64,000 nucleotides of DNA from an uncultured Gammaproteobacteria bacterium (GCA_964491475.1 CAZBFO010000001.1:110720-174719), one strand, 5' to 3'. Shown: positions 9,837-51,986, counted from the stretch's first letter. The notes: generated by a model from the letters alone, not told the origin. Numbers and translations are program-made.

Positions 9837-11696
9837 TTACTTGGTCAGTCCAAGCTCCTTGGCCAACGCCTCGGCATCGGACACCAGGCGTTCCATGCTC
9901 ACCTTGATGCCGTCCTCCCAGAAGGTCTGCGAGGTCGGGTCGAGGCCGAACGGCGCCAGGAGCTCCTTGGCGTCCTTGGTGCCGCCGGCGCGGAGCATCT
10001 CGAGGTACAGCGGCTCGAACTTCTCGCCCAGGCGCGGACGGGCCGCGTACAGCGACTGCGTCAGTAGCTCGCCGAAGGCGTAACCGTAGACGTAGAACGG
10101 GCGGTGGAAGTGGCCGACGTAGGCCCACAGGTGCGAAGTGTCTTCGTAACTGAACACTTCGCCCGGTTTGCCGTAGAGCGGGTAGAGCGACTCCTGCCAG
10201 AGCCGGTCGAGCTCGTCGGCGGAATGCTTGGCCACGGGGCCCCACGAACTGGTCTCGAAGTTCCAGCCGTGGATGCGGCGCTCGAAGTTGGAGAAGCCGA
10301 TCTGGCGCACCACCGTGTTGGTGACGTCGTTCAGCTTGTCCATGATCAGCGCCAGCTTGGCCTTCTTGGCGTTTTCGTCCGGGCTCTTGTCGAGCTCGGA
10401 CATCAGGTAGTTGAAGGTGGTCATCTCGCCGAAGACCGATGCGGTCTCGCACAGCGCGATGGGCGCGTGGGACATCAGCGGTCCTTGGGCCTCGCCGGCC
10501 AGCAGCCCATGGACGCCGTGACCCAGCTCGTGCGCCAAGGTCATGACGTCGCGTCCCGAACCTTGGTAGTTCAGGAAGGTGAACGAGGCGGCGGAAGCGT
10601 CGGGCAGCGAGAACGAGTAGTTGTACGCTCCTCCGCGTCGGCCCTTCATGGCCGGCGCATCGATCCAGCCCTTGCCAGCGCTCTTCTCGACCAGCGAGGC
10701 CAGCGTCGGGCTGAAGCTGCGATAGGCCGAGAGGACGATCTCCATGGCCTTGTTCCACGGCAGCTTGGTGTTGTCCGCGAAAGGCATCGGGGCGTTGCGG
10801 TCGCTCCAGGCCAGCACCTTCCTGCCGAAGATGTCGGCTTTGAGGCGATAGAAGCGCTGGGCGATCGGTCCGGCCTTTTCGGTGACGGCCTGGTGCAGCG
10901 CGTCGACCACGGCGTCGGGCAGCTGGCTGGACTTGTTGCGCGAGTCCATCGGGTGGGCGTACTTGCGGTCCTTGTCCTCGACTTCGCCGGAACCGGTCAC
11001 CATGTACAAGGTCTGTGCCGAGTACTTGGCAAAGGCCCCGCCGAGCCCGTCGTTGGTCACCTTGAGCGCGGCCGCGCGTTCAGCGGAGTCGGTGCTCTCG
11101 CTCAAGACGTGCAGGATTTCCGTCAGCGACAGCTCTTCATCCTTCCAGGCAAAGCGCAGGTCGGCTTCGAACTCGTCGAAGAACTCGGCCCACGAACCCG
11201 AACCGAACGGCGAACGCTTGGTCAGGGCCGACTCGACCACTTCGGTCAGCACGTGCGGCTTGAACAGGCGGACCTGCTTGAGCCAGGGGAGGTGCTTTTT
11301 GACCACCTCGTCCTTGGCGGCATGCGCGGCGATGACCGCGTCATCCAGCTCCACGAGCTCCAAAGTGAAGAACTCCATGTACTCGGCGCTCGCTTGACTG
11401 ACGGCCTTGTCGAGCTTGGCGGACTTGGTCTTGGCGGCCGCGTCGCCGGTGTTGACGCTGGTCAGGAAGAACAGGTAAGCGCCGGTCTTGGCGCTCATCA
11501 GCTGCATCTGGGTGTAGTCGCGGATGGCCTGGCCGAGGGTCTCCTTGAGCTTGCCCTTGTGGGCGGCGTTGAAGGCCTTGGCGCGGGCAATCCAGGCGTC
11601 GGTGTCGGCCTCGATGGTCGGGTCGTCGACGCCCTTGTAGAGCTGCGACAGGTTCCAGCGGACGTTTTCGGCCCCCGTGGCGGGGGCTTTGGACAT
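9837..11696 (-). CDS. pepF: oligoendopeptidase F (M3B family metallopeptidase)
   Basis: 620 aa. HELGHGVH zinc-binding motif and M3-family context (FSNFERRIH... ; GAYNYSF). Start chosen at MSKAPATG. Confidence 0.85.
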   Translation of the reverse strand: MSKAPATGAENVRWNLSQLYKGVDDPTIEADTDAWIARAKAFNAAHKGKLKETLGQAIRDYTQMQLMSAKTGAYLFFLTSVNTGDAAAKTKSAKLDKAVSQASAEYMEFFTLELVELDDAVIAAHAAKDEVVKKHLPWLKQVRLFKPHVLTEVVESALTKRSPFGSGSWAEFFDEFEADLRFAWKDEELSLTEILHVLSESTDSAERAAALKVTNDGLGGAFAKYSAQTLYMVTGSGEVEDKDRKYAHPMDSRNKSSQLPDAVVDALHQAVTEKAGPIAQRFYRLKADIFGRKVLAWSDRNAPMPFADNTKLPWNKAMEIVLSAYRSFSPTLASLVEKSAGKGWIDAPAMKGRRGGAYNYSFSLPDASAASFTFLNYQGSGRDVMTLAHELGHGVHGLLAGEAQGPLMSHAPIALCETASVFGEMTTFNYLMSELDKSPDENAKKAKLALIMDKLNDVTNTVVRQIGFSNFERRIHGWNFETSSWGPVAKHSADELDRLWQESLYPLYGKPGEVFSYEDTSHLWAYVGHFHRPFYVYGYAFGELLTQSLYAARPRLGEKFEPLYLEMLRAGGTKDAKELLAPFGLDPTSQTFWEDGIKVSMERLVSDAEALAKELGLTK

Positions 11697-22356: not shown

Positions 22357-22451
22357 GATGCCACCTCGCTTCCGGAAAGAACTGCGCCTTGAGGATACTC
22401 CCTGCCGCCAGTCTTGCCAAAGGCCCCCCTTTCTGTCACGGTCGGGCAGTC

Positions 22452-23402
22452 ATGTTCCTTTTTATGTTTATGCGGCGTAATGCCGCGGAAACGACGAGGC
22501 CGGCAATGCCTGCCGAGACGAGAAGCAAAACGGCATTCGACCGGTACCGAAACGACTTGTCCCGCTTCGCTCCGTTGGAGCGTCGAGAAGAACGCCGATT
22601 ACTGCGTGCCTATGCCGCAGGAGACCGTGCGGCCGGCGACCGCGTCGTGCTGGCGCATCTGCGCTTCGTCGTCGACGAGGCCAAGAAGTTCGTCGGCCGC
22701 GGCGTGCCCTTCGAGGACCTGGTGCAGGAAGGCAACATCGGACTGCTGCACGCCTTGGAAAGGTTTGACCTCGAAAAACGGTCGCGGCACGTCGGCAGGA
22801 GCTGTCGGTTCATCTCCTATGCCGCCTTTTGGGTGAAGGAGCGGCTGACAATGGCCGTCATCGAGAAGGGAAAGGTCGTCAAGGTTGAGCGCAAGGTGCA
22901 GCACAGGCTCGCCAAGCTGCGAAAGCTGGACCGCCTGTACGAAGCCGACTTGGGCCGCCCCGCCACCGTCGAGGAAGCGGCCGCGCACCTGGGGCTGACC
23001 GAGGCGGTGGCCAGACGCCTGCGGCTTGTCGAGACGTTCCGCAGCGTTTCGCTCGATCAGCCGTCGGGATCCGCAAGAAGCGCGGACGAGGAGTTCGCGC
23101 TGTACGCGGTGGTTCCTGCCGAACAGCCCGCAATCGACGAGCACTGCCACGAAAAACTGCGCGACGAACGTCGCCGGCGCGATCTCGCGGCCGCCATCGA
23201 GACGCTGGACCCGCGTGACGGCACGCTGCTGCGCGAGCGGCTGCTGCGAGAACCGGAAGACCGCAAGATGCACCGCCAGCTTGCCGCAGAGCTCGGGCTG
23301 TCGCGCTCGCGGGTGCAGCAGCTGGAAGAACTGCTCATGCGTCGGCTTCGGACGCTGATGAACGGCGTCCCGGATCGGGCGGAAAGGACGAAACGATGCT
23401 GA
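22452..23402 (+). CDS. RNA polymerase sigma factor, sigma-70 family (regions 2, 3, 4 present)
   Basis: Region 2 DLVQEGNIGLLHALERFD...FISYAAFWVKERL; region 4 HTH QLAAELGLSRSRVQQLEE. Alternative start at 22506, preceded by GAGG. Confidence 0.8.
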   Translation: MFLFMFMRRNAAETTRPAMPAETRSKTAFDRYRNDLSRFAPLERREERRLLRAYAAGDRAAGDRVVLAHLRFVVDEAKKFVGRGVPFEDLVQEGNIGLLHALERFDLEKRSRHVGRSCRFISYAAFWVKERLTMAVIEKGKVVKVERKVQHRLAKLRKLDRLYEADLGRPATVEEAAAHLGLTEAVARRLRLVETFRSVSLDQPSGSARSADEEFALYAVVPAEQPAIDEHCHEKLRDERRRRDLAAAIETLDPRDGTLLRERLLREPEDRKMHRQLAAELGLSRSRVQQLEELLMRRLRTLMNGVPDRAERTKRC

Positions 23403-23790: not shown

Positions 23791-23819
23791 TTGACAAAAT
23801 GGTCATTTTCTGGTAGGCT
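23791..23819 (+). promoter_or_regulatory. promoter TTGACAAAATG-N-cTGgTAGGCT
   Basis: TTGACA, 17-nt spacer, TGn-TAGGCT; precedes a leader with a small hairpin plus T-run. Confidence 0.5.
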
Positions 23820-23874
23820 CCAGAGTCGCCCGCCCGCAGCGGACGATTTTGTTTTGGCTAACTGTAGCGAAAAT

Positions 23875-24465
23875 ATGAGAATGACCTTCAAACGAACCTT
23901 GGCCGCAACCAATCTCGGCAGGATCGCATCGGCCCTTCTCACCTTGGTAATGGTGATTCAGCCGGTAAAAGTGACCGCCCAGACGGTTTCCGGCCTTGAA
24001 ATCGGCCCTGCCGCCACTGCGACGGCCGATGAAAACCCTCCGAGTACCGAGGGCGATGACCAGGCTTCCGAGCCTGTCGTGCCGCCCACAGCCCAGGAAA
24101 TTTTGCTGGATACCTGCAAAAACCGCGGCTACGGTGAGGGTTGCGCCAAGGCGCTGCTCGGCATGATGTGGAAAGAGTCCCGTAACTTGGCTACAGCCGT
24201 GGGCGACCACGGTGCAGCCCTGGGCTACTTCCAGATCCACTATCGCCTTCACAAAGTCACCCGCGCTTGCGCCACTGACCTGGCCTGCTCGGCCGAATGG
24301 ACCATCAAGTACATGGAACGGAACGGTTACCCCAAGTACGTGAAATATGCGGTCCAGTGCCATAACGGCTGCGGCATCAACAACGGTTACGCCCTCTCGG
24401 CGCTTCGCAACGGCGAACGCCTCTGGGACGAACCGATGACCATCGAGGTCGCCTTAGCCAAGTAA
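23875..24465 (+). CDS. secreted lysozyme-like/transglycosylase-like protein
   Basis: Signal peptide. ESRN...GDHGAALGYFQI motif reminiscent of family GH23 lytic transglycosylase / goose-type lysozyme cores. Several Cys. Confidence 0.5.
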   Translation: MRMTFKRTLAATNLGRIASALLTLVMVIQPVKVTAQTVSGLEIGPAATATADENPPSTEGDDQASEPVVPPTAQEILLDTCKNRGYGEGCAKALLGMMWKESRNLATAVGDHGAALGYFQIHYRLHKVTRACATDLACSAEWTIKYMERNGYPKYVKYAVQCHNGCGINNGYALSALRNGERLWDEPMTIEVALAK

Positions 24466-25505: not shown

Positions 25506-25511
25506 CGACGG

Positions 25512-25540
25512 CGACCGCTTCCGGCGGTCGTTTTTCTTTT
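25512..25540 (+). terminator. rho-independent terminator
   Basis: CGACCGC-TTCC-GGCGGTCG followed by TTTTTCTTTT. Confidence 0.7.
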
Positions 25541-25619
25541 GCCGGGATGTTACCCGAATCGGTCTCATTCGTTGTATTATTATGATAAGAGCGATTTCTT
25601 TCGTTATCAGCGCATAGCT

Positions 25620-26585
25620 ATGACCCCCATCAAGAAAAGGCGCGTCATCATCGGTTCGGTTTCGGTCGCGGTCGTCCTGTTCGCAGCCGCCGCGGCATAT
25701 CATCTGCATCTCAAGCAGACCGCGAAAGGCGGCGTTTCGACGCTTTCGCTGCCCATCATGACGGCTCGAGGGTTCGTCGGGGCGGCCGCCTCCTCCGGCG
25801 AAGCCGCCTACGACAGCTACGACGACAACGTCGCCGTCAAATCGATGATCGCCCCGTCGCCGATGCCGCCGATCTATCAGAACGGGGGACAGACGGCCGC
25901 GGAAGTCGATCAGAAAATCATCAAGAACGGTTCGCTGCGGCTGACGGTCGACAGCGTCTCCGACTCGTTGGCGCAGATGGCGAATATCGCCAAGAAGTAC
26001 CAGGGTTTCGTGCAGGCTTCGTCTTCCTCGGAGCGCGGCGACGGCAAGCATGAGGGCTCCGTCGCCATTCGCGTGCCTTCCGACAGGTTCGAGTCGGCCA
26101 TGAGCGACGCCAAGAAGATTGCCCGCGTGGTCAACAACGAATACGTCTCCGGCCAGGACGTGACCGAGCAGTACTCGGACCTCGAGGCGCAGCTCCGCAA
26201 CGCCCAAGCCCAGGAAGCGGAATATCTGGTCATCCTCAAGAAGGCAGTCTCGGTTGAGGACATCCTCAAGGTGCAACAGCCGTTGGGACAGGTCCGCGGC
26301 GAAATAGAATCGCTGCAGGGCCGTCTGAAGTATTTGCAGAACGTCACCTCGCTTTCGAGCATCGACATCGCGCTGACCGAGGAGGCGAGCGTGTCCGTGC
26401 CCACCAAGGAGTTTCGCCCGCTGACCATCGTCAAGCAGGCCGCGCAGACGCTGGTGACGCTGGCGCAGGACATCGCCGCGGCGATCATCTGGATCGTCAT
26501 CGTCGGCGGCGGCATCGCCATTCCAATCATCGTACTGGTTCTGCTGGTGCTGGCCGCGCTGCGGCGGCGCGGCAAAAAGAAATAG
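25620..26585 (+). CDS. DUF4349 domain-containing membrane protein
   Basis: N-terminal TM, central coiled-coil-like region (DLEAQLRNAQAQEAEYL...LQGRLKYLQN), C-terminal TM and RRRGKKK tail; typical DUF4349 architecture. Confidence 0.65.
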   Translation: MTPIKKRRVIIGSVSVAVVLFAAAAAYHLHLKQTAKGGVSTLSLPIMTARGFVGAAASSGEAAYDSYDDNVAVKSMIAPSPMPPIYQNGGQTAAEVDQKIIKNGSLRLTVDSVSDSLAQMANIAKKYQGFVQASSSSERGDGKHEGSVAIRVPSDRFESAMSDAKKIARVVNNEYVSGQDVTEQYSDLEAQLRNAQAQEAEYLVILKKAVSVEDILKVQQPLGQVRGEIESLQGRLKYLQNVTSLSSIDIALTEEASVSVPTKEFRPLTIVKQAAQTLVTLAQDIAAAIIWIVIVGGGIAIPIIVLVLLVLAALRRRGKKK

Positions 26586-26669
26586 CCGTTACTTCCGCCG
26601 CAAGGTCTCGTTTCACTAGGCGGAGGACGACCTGATCAGCCGGACTCGCCCACAGGTAATCGCCGTGCC

Positions 26670-27251
26670 ATGGCCAACGTGCAAGACGCAAAACTCGTCC
26701 GTGCCTGCCAAACGGGAGACGCCGACGCCTTCGGCCGGCTTTATGACGCCTACGTTCGGAAAATCTACGACTTCGTCTATTACCGCACGCATCACCGCGA
26801 AACCGCCGAAGACTTGACCAGCGACGTCTTCATGAAGGCCTTCGCCGGCCTGCGCGGGTTCGATCCGGACCAAGGCTCCTTCTCCTCCTGGCTGTACCGC
26901 ATCGCCAGGAACCGCGTCATCGACCATTACCGCACCGCCAAGCATGCCAAAGACGTCGAAGACATCGAGGACGTCTGGGACGTGCTGCGGAGCGGCGAAG
27001 ACGTCAACCGCGACGCAGAGACGCGCGAACTGCTGCGCGACGCCGAGAAGCTGGTGGCCCAGCTGCCAGCCGCCCAGCGCGACGTAGTCATCATGCGCGC
27101 TTGGGACCAGCTCTCCTACGCGGAGATTGCCGAAATCCTCGGCAAGTCCGAAGCCGCCTGCAAAATGAGCTTCTCGCGCGCGGTGGCCTCGCTGCGGCTG
27201 CAGGCGCCCCTAGCCCTGCTGCTGGCCATACTTCTTAATCCTTTGCGTTGA
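26670..27251 (+). CDS. ECF-type RNA polymerase sigma factor (sigma-70 family, RpoE-like)
   Basis: Region 2 (YDFVYYRTHHRETAEDLTSDVFMKAF, SWLYRIARNRVIDHYR) and region 4 (VIMRAWDQLSYAEIAEILGKSEAACKMSFSRA). Confidence 0.9.
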   Translation: MANVQDAKLVRACQTGDADAFGRLYDAYVRKIYDFVYYRTHHRETAEDLTSDVFMKAFAGLRGFDPDQGSFSSWLYRIARNRVIDHYRTAKHAKDVEDIEDVWDVLRSGEDVNRDAETRELLRDAEKLVAQLPAAQRDVVIMRAWDQLSYAEIAEILGKSEAACKMSFSRAVASLRLQAPLALLLAILLNPLR

Positions 27252-27256
27252 CCGCC

Positions 27257-28846
27257 ATGCCTAGCAAAAACCAGATCGAGGAAATCCTCCGCGACTGCCT
27301 GGCCGCCGACCCGTCCTTGCGGGAACGCGAGGACGAGCTACGGCCGATCATCAAGGCACTGCTCGAATCCAAACCGGACACGCGCTTCAGCACGGAGTTC
27401 GCCGATCGGCTGCACGACGCCCTCGCAAACGAACGGCAGAAACGAAACGGCAAGATTCGAGTCACCCCTTCACCTTTCGGCGCTATGAAGCTCAAACCCA
27501 TCGCTTTCCCCATCGTCGGCAGCCTCGCGCTCGTGGCCGTCTTTGCCCTGCTCCTGGTGCAAAAGCCTCCGGGAGCCAAAACGTCGACGGTGGCCACGGT
27601 GCAGCAGCCCAAACCGCACGGCATGCAGATCGCCAAGGTCGCCGACGGCGCCTTCGGTCCGCTCGCCGCTACGACGGTTCAGGCAACCCGGCCGTTGATG
27701 GCTGACGGCTACGAGGAGGGCCGCAACGCGGCGGGCGCGGCACCCATGGCCGCACCTTCGGCCGCCATGGGCATGGACACGGCGGTCAGTGCTCATTCGC
27801 AAAATGGCGGAGGCGGTACGGCAAGTTCCTCCAAGATGGCCGCGATCATGCCCGTCCAGCAGCCGGTCAACTACCGCTACGTCTACAAGGGCGAGCTGCC
27901 GCCCATCGACGCCAAGATCGCGGTCTATCGCCACGTGAAGGGCCTGACCTCCGGAAACCTGCTGCCATCCTTCGGCAACATCACCGGCGGCTTGATGGAC
28001 GGTTCGCATTTTTCTTCGGGCGCCCTGCAGTCGCTGAATGTCGTCGAGGACCGAGACTACGGTTACGGCATCTTCCTGGACGCGACCGAGGGCGGCATCT
28101 CGATGAATCAGAACTGGCAGCGCTGGCCGCATCCCGAGAGCAAGTGCCGCGACGAGGCGTGCTACCAGCAGTACCAGCTGAAGCCCGACCAGATGCCGGC
28201 TGACGACGTGGTCATCGGCGTGGCCGAGGACTTCATCAAGGAGTACGGCATCGACCGTTCGGCGCTCGGCAAGCCGTCCATCAACAGCGATTGGCGCATC
28301 CGTCCGATGGGCGTTGCCGCGGACATGCCCTTGTACGTCCCCGACGTGGTCTCCGTATCGTATCCGTACCTTATCGACGGCAAGACCGTACAGGACGAAA
28401 GCGGCAACGTGAACGGCGTGACCGTCAACGTCGACGTCCGCGAGAAGAAGGTCGACGGGCTGTGGGGACTGCTGACCAACCGTTACGAGCAGTCGTCGTA
28501 TGATGCGGAGACGGACACGGCGCGGCTGCTCAAGTTCGTCTCGAACGGCGGCTTGTATCCCGTCTACGACGATTCGTCCGCAAAGACGGTCGAGATCGCG
28601 TTGGGCGAACCCGAAGTAGTGCTCGTCGCCTATTGGAAGGACAACGGCGACGGCACCGGCCAGAACCTGTATGTGCCCACCCTGCGCTTCACGGTGCAGA
28701 ATCCGCCGGCCGATCAGCCGTGGTTCCGCAAGGCCGTGACCGTACCGCTTTCCAAGGACCTGCTCGACCAGGCCGACAAGCAGGCGGCCGGCCAGGGCGG
28801 CGGCGTGCCGACTCCCGTCATGTACATGAAGGACGGCGTCAAATGA
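27257..28846 (+). CDS. putative anti-sigma factor (single-pass membrane protein, large extracytoplasmic domain)
   Basis: Start overlaps the ECF sigma stop. About 80-aa cytoplasmic N-terminus, one TM (IAFPIVGSLALVAVFALLLV), 430-aa external domain. Assignment is by position and architecture. Confidence 0.55.
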   Translation: MPSKNQIEEILRDCLAADPSLREREDELRPIIKALLESKPDTRFSTEFADRLHDALANERQKRNGKIRVTPSPFGAMKLKPIAFPIVGSLALVAVFALLLVQKPPGAKTSTVATVQQPKPHGMQIAKVADGAFGPLAATTVQATRPLMADGYEEGRNAAGAAPMAAPSAAMGMDTAVSAHSQNGGGGTASSSKMAAIMPVQQPVNYRYVYKGELPPIDAKIAVYRHVKGLTSGNLLPSFGNITGGLMDGSHFSSGALQSLNVVEDRDYGYGIFLDATEGGISMNQNWQRWPHPESKCRDEACYQQYQLKPDQMPADDVVIGVAEDFIKEYGIDRSALGKPSINSDWRIRPMGVAADMPLYVPDVVSVSYPYLIDGKTVQDESGNVNGVTVNVDVREKKVDGLWGLLTNRYEQSSYDAETDTARLLKFVSNGGLYPVYDDSSAKTVEIALGEPEVVLVAYWKDNGDGTGQNLYVPTLRFTVQNPPADQPWFRKAVTVPLSKDLLDQADKQAAGQGGGVPTPVMYMKDGVK

Positions 28847-29688
28847 CCGCGAACCGCTTCAAGGGCCTCCGCACGGAGGCCTTTGTGCGTGCCGTTGTGC
28901 CGACTTCGGCGCTCGGCTACACTAGGCTCATCATCTTTTACCCTATGGAATCAAAAGACCTCCGTTCAGCGCTGGTGGCGACAGCTTTGGTGCTGTCGCT
29001 GGGCCTGGTTGCGGCCACCGGCGTCGCCGCGACAGCCTTCTTCAAGGCCAAGACGCTCGGCAACGTCATCGAAGTCACCGGATCTGCCGACAGGACCATC
29101 ACCTCGGACGTGGTGAAGTGGTCCGGCCGGATTTCACGCACCGTCGGCGTCGACGGCCTCAAAGGCGGCAGCGCCGCAATCAAGGCCGACCTCGCGACGG
29201 TGACCGAGGCTCTGCATGCCGCCGGGGTGAAGGATGAGCAGCTGACGATCCGGCCGGTGAACGTCTTCCCCAACTACGCCGGCGACGCCAACGGCACCTC
29301 GCACATGACCGGCTACAGCATCGACCAGGGCTTCCTGGTCGAGTCGAACGACGTGAAGGGCATCACGGTCCTGTCGCATGACGTGGCCGACAAGATGCTG
29401 GCTTCCGGCGTGGTGTTCAGCACCGACGGCCTGGAGTACTACTATTCCAAGCTGGCCGAGCTGAAGCTGCAGATGCTTTCCGATGCCACCGCCAACGCCA
29501 AGGCGAGGGCGCAACGCATCGCGGAGAGCACCGGCGCGCGACTCGGCACCGTGCGCAGCGCGGGCATGGGCGTGTTCCAGGTCACGGCGGTCAATTCCGC
29601 CGAGATTTCGGACTATGGCGCTTATGATACCGGCGCCATCGAGAAGAAAGTCACTGCGGTCGCACGGACCACCTTCCAAATCAACTAA
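28843..29688 (+). CDS. SIMPL domain-containing protein (DUF541)
   Basis: ATGA overlap with the anti-sigma stop. Signal/TM then a SIMPL-like domain. Alternative internal start at 28946 (MESKDL). Confidence 0.65.
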   Translation: MTANRFKGLRTEAFVRAVVPTSALGYTRLIIFYPMESKDLRSALVATALVLSLGLVAATGVAATAFFKAKTLGNVIEVTGSADRTITSDVVKWSGRISRTVGVDGLKGGSAAIKADLATVTEALHAAGVKDEQLTIRPVNVFPNYAGDANGTSHMTGYSIDQGFLVESNDVKGITVLSHDVADKMLASGVVFSTDGLEYYYSKLAELKLQMLSDATANAKARAQRIAESTGARLGTVRSAGMGVFQVTAVNSAEISDYGAYDTGAIEKKVTAVARTTFQIN

Positions 29689-29703
29689 CCAAAGGCACAG
29701 CTC

Positions 29704-30483
29704 ATGTCTCCATTGCACGCGGCCGTTCTCGGCGTCGTCGAGGGCCTGACGGAATTCTTGCCCGTCTCCTCGACCGGTCATCTCATCCTGGCATCGCACC
29801 TGCTGGGCGTCGGCCAGTCCGATTTCCAGAAGACCTTCGAAATCGTCATTCAGCTGGGCGCCATCATGGCGGTGGTGCTGTTGTACTGGAAGTCGCTTTT
29901 GGACATCGAGGTGCTCAAACGACTGGTCATCGGTTTCATCCCTACGGGAGTGATCGGTCTGGCCCTGTACAAGGTGGTCAAGCGCTACCTGTTGGCCAGC
30001 GAGACGCTGGTGCTCTGGTCGCTGGCCATCGGCGGCATCGTGCTCATCGCCTTCGAGCTGTGGCAGCGCAGGCGGGCATTCGCGCATGATGACAGGGAAG
30101 ACGTAAAACGCATCACCTACAAGCAGGCCTTCGTCATCGGCCTGTTTCAGTCCATCGCCATCATTCCCGGCGTGTCGCGCTCCGCCGCCACCATCGTCGG
30201 CGGCATGGTACAGGGCATCGACCGCAAGACCACGGTGAAGTTCTCCTTTCTGCTGGCCGTGCCGACGATGCTTGCCGCGACGGGACTGGACCTGCTCAAG
30301 AACGCCAAGAGTTTCGCCCATGCGGACGCAACGGCGCTGGCCATCGGGCTGGCGGTGTCGTTCATCGTTGCCCTCGGTGCCATTCGGTTCTTTCTGGCCT
30401 TCGTGCGCACGCGTACGTTCATGCCGTTCGGCATCTACCGGGTGGTTGCGGCCCTGGCCTTCTGGGGCCTGTTCCTGAGCTGA
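29704..30483 (+). CDS. uppP: undecaprenyl-diphosphate phosphatase
   Basis: VEGLTEFLPVSSTGHL, SRSAATI and 8-TM layout of BacA/UppP. Confidence 0.9.
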   Translation: MSPLHAAVLGVVEGLTEFLPVSSTGHLILASHLLGVGQSDFQKTFEIVIQLGAIMAVVLLYWKSLLDIEVLKRLVIGFIPTGVIGLALYKVVKRYLLASETLVLWSLAIGGIVLIAFELWQRRRAFAHDDREDVKRITYKQAFVIGLFQSIAIIPGVSRSAATIVGGMVQGIDRKTTVKFSFLLAVPTMLAATGLDLLKNAKSFAHADATALAIGLAVSFIVALGAIRFFLAFVRTRTFMPFGIYRVVAALAFWGLFLS

Positions 30484-30497
30484 TCATGCTGAAGATG

Positions 30498-30526
30498 ACC
30501 GCCGCTTTCCGCGGCGGTTTTTCATT
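30498..30526 (+). terminator. rho-independent terminator ending the ECF operon
   Basis: ACCGCCGC-TTTCC-GCGGCGGT followed by TTTTTC. Confidence 0.75.
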
Positions 30527-30562: not shown

Positions 30563-31720
30563 ATGAAGATGCGACATGCCGTGGCCTTCACGACCGCACC
30601 GACGGCCCTGCTGACCGGGCTGCTGTTGTCGGTGTTTTTGCGCGGGCAGCAGCCCAAGCCGGCGCCGCAGCCTCACGCGCGCGAGCTGCCGCTCGCCGCC
30701 CTGCTGCCGGCGACTCTCGCCGCCGAAAATCCGGACGCTTCGGCCGTTTCTACGGAAAAGACGGCAGCGAAGAAAACGACGTTGGTCGCGGTGGGCGACA
30801 TCATGCTGTCACGCAACGTCGGGGCGATCATCCGCAAGCGCAAGGACGTGCGCTATCCGTACGCCGACACGGCAGAACTCACCCGCGACGCCGACATCGC
30901 CTTTGCCAACTTGGAAACGTCGATTACTCCCGGAAGGCCGATCAACACTGGCGAGATGACGTTCCGCGCCGACCCGGACACGGTCGACGGGCTCGCCGAC
31001 GCCGGGTTCGACGTCGTTTCGCTGGCAAACAACCATACGCCCAACTTCGGTCAGAAAGGCCTGGCTGACACCTTCAAGCACCTGCATGACGCGGGGGTCG
31101 CCTACGCGGGGGCCGGCGAAGACTACGCAGCCGCGCATCTGCCCGCTGTCATCGAGCGCAACGGATTGCGCTTCGCCTTCCTTGCCTACAACGATCACGA
31201 CGTCGTGCCGGAGTCATACGCGGCCGCGGACGGCCATGCCGGCACCGCCATAATGAACGTCGACGCGGTGAAGGCGGCCGTGAAGGCGGCACGCGAAATC
31301 GCGGACGTGATCATCGTCTCGATGCATTCGGGGCACGAGTACACCTACGTTCCGGACGCATCGCAGACGGCGTTCGCCCGCGCGGCCATAGATGCCGGCG
31401 CGGACCTGGTCATCGGTCACCACGCGCATGTGGTGCAGGCAGTCGAGCAGTACGGGGGCAAGATGATTTTCTACGGATTGGGCAATTTCATCTTCGACCA
31501 GCAGTGGTCGATACCGACGCGCGAAGGCATGGCGATCCGCGTGACCTTTGAAGGCACCCGCGTGGCGGACGCGGAAGCGTTCCCCGTGTACATCACGGAT
31601 GCCAAGCCGTCATTTGCCGATGGCATGACGGCGGACGAGACCTTGAGGCGTCTTGGCATGCCCGCACAGAAAACCGAGAACGGTTATCGGCTGACGGCCT
31701 TCGAACTGCACGGACAGTGA
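30563..31720 (+). CDS. CapA family protein (poly-gamma-glutamate synthesis / metallophosphatase-like)
   Basis: Signal/TM. VGDIML, NLETS, ANNH, GHHAH motifs of the CapA family. Confidence 0.85.
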   Translation: MKMRHAVAFTTAPTALLTGLLLSVFLRGQQPKPAPQPHARELPLAALLPATLAAENPDASAVSTEKTAAKKTTLVAVGDIMLSRNVGAIIRKRKDVRYPYADTAELTRDADIAFANLETSITPGRPINTGEMTFRADPDTVDGLADAGFDVVSLANNHTPNFGQKGLADTFKHLHDAGVAYAGAGEDYAAAHLPAVIERNGLRFAFLAYNDHDVVPESYAAADGHAGTAIMNVDAVKAAVKAAREIADVIIVSMHSGHEYTYVPDASQTAFARAAIDAGADLVIGHHAHVVQAVEQYGGKMIFYGLGNFIFDQQWSIPTREGMAIRVTFEGTRVADAEAFPVYITDAKPSFADGMTADETLRRLGMPAQKTENGYRLTAFELHGQ

Positions 31721-51917: not shown

Positions 51918-51986
51918 TACCTGATGAGCGCGGCCCAAGGGTTGCCAAACCCAAAAAAGTGTGTTACCTTCGCACAGTTATCACCT

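Follow-up and report, generated by a model that had tools for sequence, protein, structure and literature searches.

We analyzed a 64,000-nucleotide (nt) stretch of DNA (GCA_964491475.1, CAZBFO010000001.1:110720-174719, deposited under an uncultured Gammaproteobacteria bacterium), hereafter the window, with a focus upon positions 25,620 to 30,526. This region encodes a DUF4349 membrane protein, an extracytoplasmic function (ECF) sigma factor, a protein devoid of Pfam domains that we refer to as ORF3 (open reading frame 3), a SIMPL (DUF541) protein, and the undecaprenyl-diphosphate phosphatase UppP. A preliminary description of the region had portrayed the five genes as a single envelope stress operon in which UppP is hard-wired to the sigma factor. 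Our results instead make it fairly probable that the region consists of three adjacent units, namely a sigma-ORF3 switch, the DUF4349 gene, and a SIMPL-uppP pair, rather than one hard-wired operon. The core of the region is the sigma factor together with ORF3, and the conservation of this pair over Patescibacteria is well supported by the sequences that we compared. The features of the region are as follows.

25510-25532 (+): intrinsic terminator behind the upstream DHO_dh-like gene, delimiting the cluster on its 5' side; 10-bp stem with 6 G-C pairs, then TTTTCTTTT
25549-25572 (+): candidate ECF-type promoter 1, GTTAC-N16-CGTT; -10 end 48 nt before the DUF4349 ATG
25620-26585 (+): DUF4349 membrane protein gene; Pfam PF14257, E=3.6e-50
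26588-26611 (+): candidate ECF-type promoter 2, GTTAC-N16-CGTT, possibly autoregulatory; -10 end 59 nt before the sigma ATG
26670-27251 (+): ECF (group 4) sigma factor gene, 193 amino acids (aa); Pfam Sigma70_r2, Sigma70_r4_2, and Sigma70_ECF
27257-28846 (+): ORF3, candidate single-pass anti-sigma factor, 529 aa; no Pfam domain, called from its topology and its +1 position after the sigma gene
28860-28917 (+): two stable hairpins right behind the ORF3 stop codon, the first being GGCCTCC-GCAC-GGAGGCC followed by TTTGTG
28918-28923 (+): TACACT, resembling a -10 box, with the SIMPL ATG 21 nt downstream; candidate housekeeping promoter element
28945-29688 (+): SIMPL (DUF541) protein gene, 247 aa, N-terminal membrane anchor; Pfam PF04402, E=2.6e-21
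29704-30483 (+): UppP/BacA undecaprenyl-diphosphate phosphatase gene, 259 aa; Pfam BacA, E=6.8e-75
30497-30519 (+): strong intrinsic terminator at the 3' end of the cluster; 9-bp stem with 7 G-C pairs, then TTTTCATTT

The comparison comprised 46 distinct loci from public assemblies (designated by L numbers), 38 of which also cover sequence ahead of the ORF3 homolog. Each of these 38 has a sigma ortholog immediately upstream of the ORF3 homolog and on the same strand, often with a sigma-ORF3 gap of ≤5 nt, while identity to the window proteins ranged from 41 to 91% for the sigma factor and from 28 to 70% for ORF3 across the loci. The proposed partnership between the ECF sigma factor and a candidate anti-sigma factor anchored in the membrane is upheld, both by the pairing in 38 of 38 loci and by the promoter motif upstream of it. 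The sigma factor itself scores far above the cutoff of the sigma superfamily model TIGR02937 (106.9 vs. 42.9 bits) and is of the ECF group 4 type, i.e. it has sigma-2 and sigma-4 domains only within ~200 aa. All of the named NCBIfam ECF subfamilies (BldN, SigW, SigM, SigX, RpoE, and others) remained under cutoff for this sigma factor, with the best match being TIGR02952 of the BldN family (132 bits vs. a cutoff of 206). A hydrophobic C-terminal tail, located at aa 175-193 (nt 27192-27248) in the window, is present in all 33 aligned orthologs (L001-L053) as a stretch of 12-15 aa right behind region 4, such as APLALLLAILLNPLR or MPLSLILYLFILRI. Its hydrophobicity is kept among the orthologs but its sequence is not, and it is shorter than a classical transmembrane (TM) helix needs; it could tether the sigma factor to the membrane, mark it for degradation, or make contact with the anti-sigma factor.

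The second member of the pair, ORF3, was previously reported to overlap the sigma gene by 4 bp. This overlap requires a TTG start at 27248, whereas the close homologs, all of which begin with MP(S/T)K, and the 529-aa public product use the ATG at 27257 (MPSKNQ...), leaving a 5-nt gap that has an equal counterpart in the related loci L003 and L009. From these alignments, the ATG is almost certainly the start of ORF3 and the TTG is not. Numbered from the ATG, ORF3 comprises a cytoplasmic three-helix domain (aa 1 to ~66), a TM helix (aa 82-101, nt 27500-27559), a conserved AFG strand (aa 132), a disordered Gly/Ala linker of about 55-60 aa (aa ~140-195), and an ectodomain of ~310 aa (aa ~200-512, nt 27854-28792). 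As read from its sequence, ORF3 has no signal peptide and carries positive charges before the TM helix; therefore, its N-terminal domain should be cytoplasmic. An AlphaFold model was generated from an 89-sequence alignment and is numbered from the TTG (ATG numbering + 3). The model has a mean predicted local distance difference test (pLDDT) score of 80.6 and exhibits N-terminal helices at 7-20, 22-40, and 49-69 (pLDDT 81-94), a TM helix at 91-104, and a compact alpha/beta ectodomain at ~205-515 (pLDDT mostly >90). Among the ORF3 family, the cytoplasmic residues D21, P43, F51, and L55 are invariant or nearly so, the AFG motif on its short strand is nearly invariant, and the ectodomain contains a C-x4-C motif in which C300 is invariant and C305 is retained in ≥90% of members (TTG numbering; equivalent to Cys297 and Cys302 from the ATG). 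The two cysteines probably form a disulfide.

The ORF3 ectodomain had been described as unmatched to any known sensor domain, which held true at the level of sequence families: Pfam, including its YycI/YycH entries, yielded no match to ORF3, and when the ORF3 family profile was run against PDB sequences, there was no hit at any E value up to 10. Its modeled fold appears similar to YycI (2o3o) and the uncharacterized protein EUBREC_2869 (5coz), with Foldseek E values of ~5e-5, a probability of 1.0, and a target-normalized TM-score of ~0.49, which is a likeness in fold and does not amount to family membership. The cytoplasmic domain was similarly devoid of relatives, as neither the 89 full-length ORF3 members nor 10 isolated N-terminal fragments matched any Pfam domain (zf-HC2, RskA, RseA_N, etc.). 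A weak hint came from the NCBIfam model NF052375 'antisigma', which was hit by 3 of the 89 members (E=0.0019, 18 bits vs. a cutoff of 100). The zinc-binding anti-sigma motif for which a check of this domain had been suggested is not there: H-x3-C-x2-C occurs in 0 of the 89 members, and 80 of them lack any Cys within the first 70 aa. The family as such is large. A word-indexed search recovered 11 ORF3 relatives, while a full profile search identified 1754 clusters (50% identity) at E≤1e-3, 1083 of them at E≤1e-30, and the best 150 of these profile matches are essentially full length. Where the relatives are named, they are called "hypothetical protein", and their organisms are Patescibacteria, Doudnabacteria, or Komeilibacteria.

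Because of its +1 position and its TM-helix pattern, we read ORF3 as a candidate anti-sigma factor. Judging from sequence and model, it fits the operational description of a single-pass anti-sigma candidate: it is encoded at +1 of an ECF gene and spans the membrane once, with the N-terminal domain on the cytoplasmic side and the C-terminal domain outside. The absence of similarity to known anti-sigma domains and of a zinc motif would also be compatible with ORF3 acting as a sigma-dependent extracytoplasmic effector or co-sensor, perhaps a YycH/YycI-like modulator of another membrane protein, with the sigma factor being controlled otherwise, e.g. via its tail as a tether or degron. The YycI-like fold is indeed that of proteins regulating a kinase and not a sigma factor, all sigma orthologs bear a hydrophobic tail that our preferred reading leaves unexplained, and the promoter copies found between sigma and ORF3 in six loci (see below) suggest that ORF3 can be a target gene. 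However, an effector acting beyond the membrane would not need a conserved ~70-aa cytoplasmic helical domain with nearly invariant residues, ORF3 keeps strictly to the +1 position in every one of the 38 loci, often with such short gaps, and we consider this alternative to be quite improbable. Nor is a missing domain match unusual. In the ECF classification (Casas-Pastor et al. 2021; PMC7826278), putative anti-sigma factors are assigned by Pfam domains, by similarity to known ones, and by TM helices, typically at +1, and most of them match no Pfam domain of experimentally studied anti-sigma factors and are recognized by the +1 position together with TM helices. ORF3 shares both the +1 position and the single TM helix with these proteins. 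The main text of that classification contains no mention of Patescibacteria (the candidate phyla radiation, CPR), DUF4349, or undecaprenyl.

One related locus departs from the usual arrangement. In L017 (4514-5231), a metagenome-assembled genome from the same clade of Patescibacteria, the locus seems to have decayed or to have been assembled wrongly: the sigma gene breaks off after ~aa 136, and a 39-aa ORF3 fragment plus the C-terminal third of UppP are left, while nothing is missing from DUF4349, the ECF motif, or PGA_cap.

A search for an AAC-N16-CGT-like autoregulatory promoter upstream of 26670 had been suggested, and such an element was indeed located at 26588-26611, with a second copy at 25549-25572. 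These are the only two exact matches to GTTAC-N16-CGT(A/T) in the window with both strands counted, and both are on the + strand. Of 32 testable related loci, 24 carry the motif no more than 300 nt ahead of sigma, and it was found in the sigma-ORF3 gap of six more; opposite-strand matches numbered only 2 in 303 kb of distinct loci. The logo derived from 27 non-identical sites reads tGTTACyTTTTt-N-CGTW, and positions that had not been selected for are conserved as well, including a T before GTTAC (20/27), a T-run after GTTAC, an A or T after CGT (27/27), and an A three bases beyond the CGT(A/T) position (20/27). A position weight matrix (PWM) built from the other loci and run over the window (~128,000 PWM positions) gave its highest score to the DUF4349 site (15.4 bits), and the sigma site came third (8.6 bits). 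From its sequence, the motif is of canonical ECF promoter architecture and constitutes a candidate promoter. It could be argued that GTTAC-N16-CGT is not a promoter and that the genes are adjacent without any shared regulatory logic, given that the motif was defined from these very sequences; the extreme strand- and position-specific enrichment over many divergent lineages, together with the canonical architecture and the conservation of unselected flanking positions, makes this exceedingly improbable. The second-best PWM match at 51963-51986 (+; 10.6 bits) has CCT in place of CGT and abuts the ATG (51987) of a ThiI-like gene (MVDTIILRTNEICLKGSNR...), and since this leaves no space for a 5' untranslated region, it is probably due to chance. 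A further PWM match, at 6602 of L025, lies inside a GalU-like gene and was likewise set aside.

Copies of the promoter motif between the sigma gene and the ORF3 homolog were observed at L010 960-983, L020 217, L037 1049, L038 611, L043 346, and L052 575. L010 and L037 have this copy besides the upstream one, whereas the upstream region of the other four is beyond the contig end. Based upon the placement of these motifs, the anti-sigma candidate could be inducible apart from sigma in these six lineages, which would create a built-in negative feedback.

The unit upstream of the pair encodes a protein whose coiled-coil ectodomain is framed by an N-terminal TM segment (or signal anchor) and a TM tail at the C-terminus. 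By tblastn over the related loci, DUF4349 orthologs were found beside the sigma-ORF3 pair in the clade of the window only. The preliminary description had tied DUF4349 to the sigma system, and the ECF motif 48 nt before its ATG does make it a credible regulon member. In the relatives L003, L054, and L057, the motif precedes the first gene of a cluster with the order Amidohydro_2-DUF4349-sigma, and L057 contains a second copy inside its DUF4349-sigma gap. In the window, the DUF4349-sigma interval was found to contain no terminator.

The third unit is the SIMPL-uppP pair. All five genes of the region are on the + strand and, the Pfam-less ORF3 aside, have Pfam and NCBIfam assignments that agree with the domains originally stated; UppP exceeds both of its equivalog cutoffs (NF001390, 265.1 vs. 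260 bits; TIGR00753, 237.8 vs. 217.5 bits), and the reported 15-nt gap between SIMPL and uppP was confirmed. A single strong terminator was said to follow uppP, and it is present at 30497-30519, but it is not the only terminator-like structure, as the hairpins behind ORF3 lie inside the cluster. Together with the terminator at 25510-25532, it brackets the five genes. Regarding the claimed ATGA overlap between ORF3 and SIMPL, an ATGA does exist at 28843-28846 and is used by the public gene call (281 aa), but it does not seem to be the real SIMPL start, since nearly all of 116 SIMPL homologs are ~240-260 aa and the ortholog starts match the ATG at 28945. Thus, SIMPL probably begins at 28945, some ambiguity coming from the coding-like GC content at third codon positions (GC3) ahead of it, and the 4-bp and ATGA overlaps are probably both start-codon artifacts.

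Unlike the sigma-ORF3 pair, SIMPL-UppP has a narrow distribution around this system. By tblastn, it is located behind ORF3 in only one syntenic clade (the window, L009, L003/L004/L018, the fragmentary L017, L054, and L057) and is absent from >30 other sigma-ORF3 loci. The synteny of this clade extends well past the cluster to DHO_dh, PGA_cap, a methyltransferase, and LMF1; therefore, conservation of the gene order need not mean functional coupling. SIMPL-BacA-PGA_cap is tightly linked in L055, where no sigma/ORF3 is nearby and an extended -10 element (TGgTAAAAT) lies upstream, while the SIMPL homolog of L056 stands alone. No ECF promoter was detected before SIMPL or uppP by exact, 1-mismatch, or PWM searches (the PWM was blank over 28847-29703). 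In addition, the 98-nt spacer between ORF3 and SIMPL is strongly structured, with a minimum free energy of -42.5 kcal/mol (z = -4.1) and 0 of 200 shuffles as stable. The hairpins at 28860-28917 are a candidate weak terminator, attenuator, or RNA-stabilizing element; at the same place, L003 has a canonical terminator (GGCCCC-TGGC-GGGGCC then TTTTCGCTT). No strong hairpin was found at the ORF3-SIMPL junction of L009, L054, or L057, with weak structure in the latter two. A GC(T/G)(C/T)TAC(A/G)CT element is kept in the otherwise divergent spacers of the window, L003, L054, and L057, and a GCTACACT-like box is located 20-35 nt before the SIMPL ATG in 4 of 5 spacers. As a recurring sequence element, this box is a candidate constitutive promoter. 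From its genomic distribution, SIMPL-UppP looks like a separate neighboring module, and the link of UppP to the switch is probably local, lineage-specific, and loose or partial. The claim of a five-gene operon with UppP hard-wired into it is weakened by a SIMPL-UppP pair that follows ORF3 in one clade only, is sigma-free in L055, lacks an ECF motif, and in the window is preceded by a structured spacer and the TACACT box.

Should all five genes nonetheless be one envelope stress operon transcribed from the ECF promoters, then UppP and SIMPL would be obligate sigma targets. We regard this as unlikely, though several features speak for it: the genes are co-directional with short gaps and have terminators on either side, the arrangement is kept in five clade members with ORF3 identity down to 38%, and B. 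subtilis provides a precedent for homeostatic ECF control of an undecaprenyl pyrophosphate (UPP) phosphatase, even if the enzyme there is bcrC (PMC5723303). Against it are the >30 sigma-ORF3 loci without SIMPL and UppP, the synteny beyond the cluster, the sigma-free SIMPL-BacA-PGA_cap of L055, the canonical terminator behind ORF3 in L003, and the structured spacer with its conserved -10-like box in the window. Several observations do weigh against our division into three units. The closest relative, L009, has an ORF3-SIMPL gap of 17 nt without a hairpin, and its SIMPL-uppP must, from this layout, be largely cotranscribed with sigma-ORF3. The first hairpin of the window has a poor U-tract (TTTGTG), so substantial read-through is possible. 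TACACT is weak relative to the promoter consensus, and Patescibacteria promoters are uncharacterized. The 98 nt between the two SIMPL starts have a coding-like GC3 of 0.79. As for the switch itself, the exact motif is missing in 8 of the 32 loci, and the ORF3 N-terminal domain matches no known anti-sigma family in Pfam or NCBIfam.

With three units as the preferred reading, we propose the following mechanism. The sigma factor would transcribe its own gene from tGTTAC-N16-CGT(A/T), resulting in positive autoregulation, and would most likely be sequestered at the membrane by the cytoplasmic three-helix domain of ORF3, while the YycI-like ectodomain is most likely the sensor of a cue from the envelope or cell surface. 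This cue would then free the sigma factor either by a change of conformation or by two successive cuts, one in the disordered linker and one inside the membrane, the latter sequence of events being familiar from other single-pass anti-sigma factors. A search of the window for a site-2 protease (M50) gene using the HExGH motif yielded only an M3-like peptidase. The second promoter copy would drive DUF4349 as a direct target, or Amidohydro_2 plus DUF4349 in the sister lineages, and because no terminator intervenes, DUF4349 transcription may read on into the sigma gene and reinforce the feedback loop. SIMPL-uppP is probably constitutive from its own promoter (TACACT box) and would gain transcription from the sigma promoters only via read-through of the hairpins behind ORF3, so that stress would raise lipid-carrier recycling modestly at best. 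Separately, a Peptidase_M50 gene (site-2 protease family) was noted in L054 at 10402-10762 (-), ~5 kb downstream of the cluster.

The logic of the region is that of the Firmicutes envelope stress ECF systems and does not overturn known ECF principles. The sigma-W/RsiW, sigma-M/YhdL-YhdK, and sigma-X/RsiX systems of B. subtilis likewise combine a small sigma-2/sigma-4 sigma factor with a regulator at +1 and exhibit positive autoregulation, as proposed here. They differ in that the present sigma factor is below the SigW, SigM, and SigX NCBIfam cutoffs, and in that ORF3 lacks both sequence similarity to RsiW and YhdL and a zinc anti-sigma motif. In promoter architecture the systems are nearly alike, as B. 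subtilis sigma-W recognizes TGAAAC-N16-CGTA and the motif here is tGTTAC-N16-CGT(A/T) with a T-rich stretch after the -35 element. YycI and YycH of the WalRK system act in cell wall-related signaling. Like ORF3, these regulators of WalK/YycG (PDB 2o3o) have one N-terminal TM anchor and an extracytoplasmic alpha/beta domain, the fold of which appears similar, whereas ORF3 adds a ~70-aa cytoplasmic domain and a ~60-aa disordered linker, shares no sequence similarity with them, and has a sigma factor as its partner rather than a histidine kinase. The sigma-M/bcrC pair of B. subtilis ties an ECF sigma factor to undecaprenyl-phosphate supply, but there the UPP phosphatase under ECF control is BcrC, a PAP2-type enzyme, with the BacA homolog UppP described as the minor phosphatase (PMC5723303), while the phosphatase here is BacA-type and lacks an ECF promoter of its own. 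Thus, the B. subtilis precedent invoked in the preliminary description is valid for ECF control of a UPP phosphatase (PMC5723303), but not for a BacA-type enzyme as the target.

Patescibacteria (CPR) are mostly uncultured and have tiny genomes with few recognizable regulators. To our knowledge, their signal transduction is essentially unstudied, and our search of the literature available to us for CPR ECF systems or DUF4349 function returned nothing relevant. What appears to be new here is a candidate, unannotated Patescibacteria-wide anti-sigma family with a YycI-like sensor domain, paired with a tailed ECF sigma factor and a clearly definable promoter. An ORF3 family of ~1750 clusters at 50% identity, so far "hypothetical", is now defined by its conserved pairing with one particular ECF sigma factor, and with a probable sigma promoter in hand, regulons become predictable from sequence alone. 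The idea of UppP lipid-carrier recycling being hard-wired to a stress switch is correspondingly tempered. More tentatively, and with appreciable doubt, this could be an undescribed Patescibacteria-wide ECF system in which a non-zinc three-helix anti-sigma domain is coupled to a YycI-like ectodomain that reads the status of the cell wall, lipid carrier, or host contact, with the sigma factor tethered or marked by its hydrophobic tail. If so, given the few regulators that these reduced genomes encode, it could be one of their main envelope or host-interface sensors, and tGTTAC-N16-CGTW would let its regulon be read from thousands of uncultured genomes.

A few additional observations concern the surroundings of the cluster. 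PGA_cap, a CapA-like metallophosphatase, recurs near the system (window 30563-31720, L055 6540-8276, L047 5883-6779, and L025 874-1761). The gene comes right behind uppP both in the window and in L009; in L055 it overlaps BacA, and two unrelated loci have it 0.4-2 kb from sigma-ORF3. It may be functionally associated with the envelope module. Across the 64-kb window, neither tRNA, tmRNA, nor other Rfam families were detected (ARAGORN; Rfam at gathering thresholds), and the Rfam ASdes and IRES_Bip matches inside 25-31 kb are sub-threshold chance matches. A few kb upstream of the cluster, a second, larger sigma-70 family gene (22389-23402, +) encodes 337 aa with regions 2, 3, and 4, and a 224-aa ORF without Pfam or NCBIfam match (23791-24465, +) has a hydrophobic N-terminus that by eye is a possible secretion signal.

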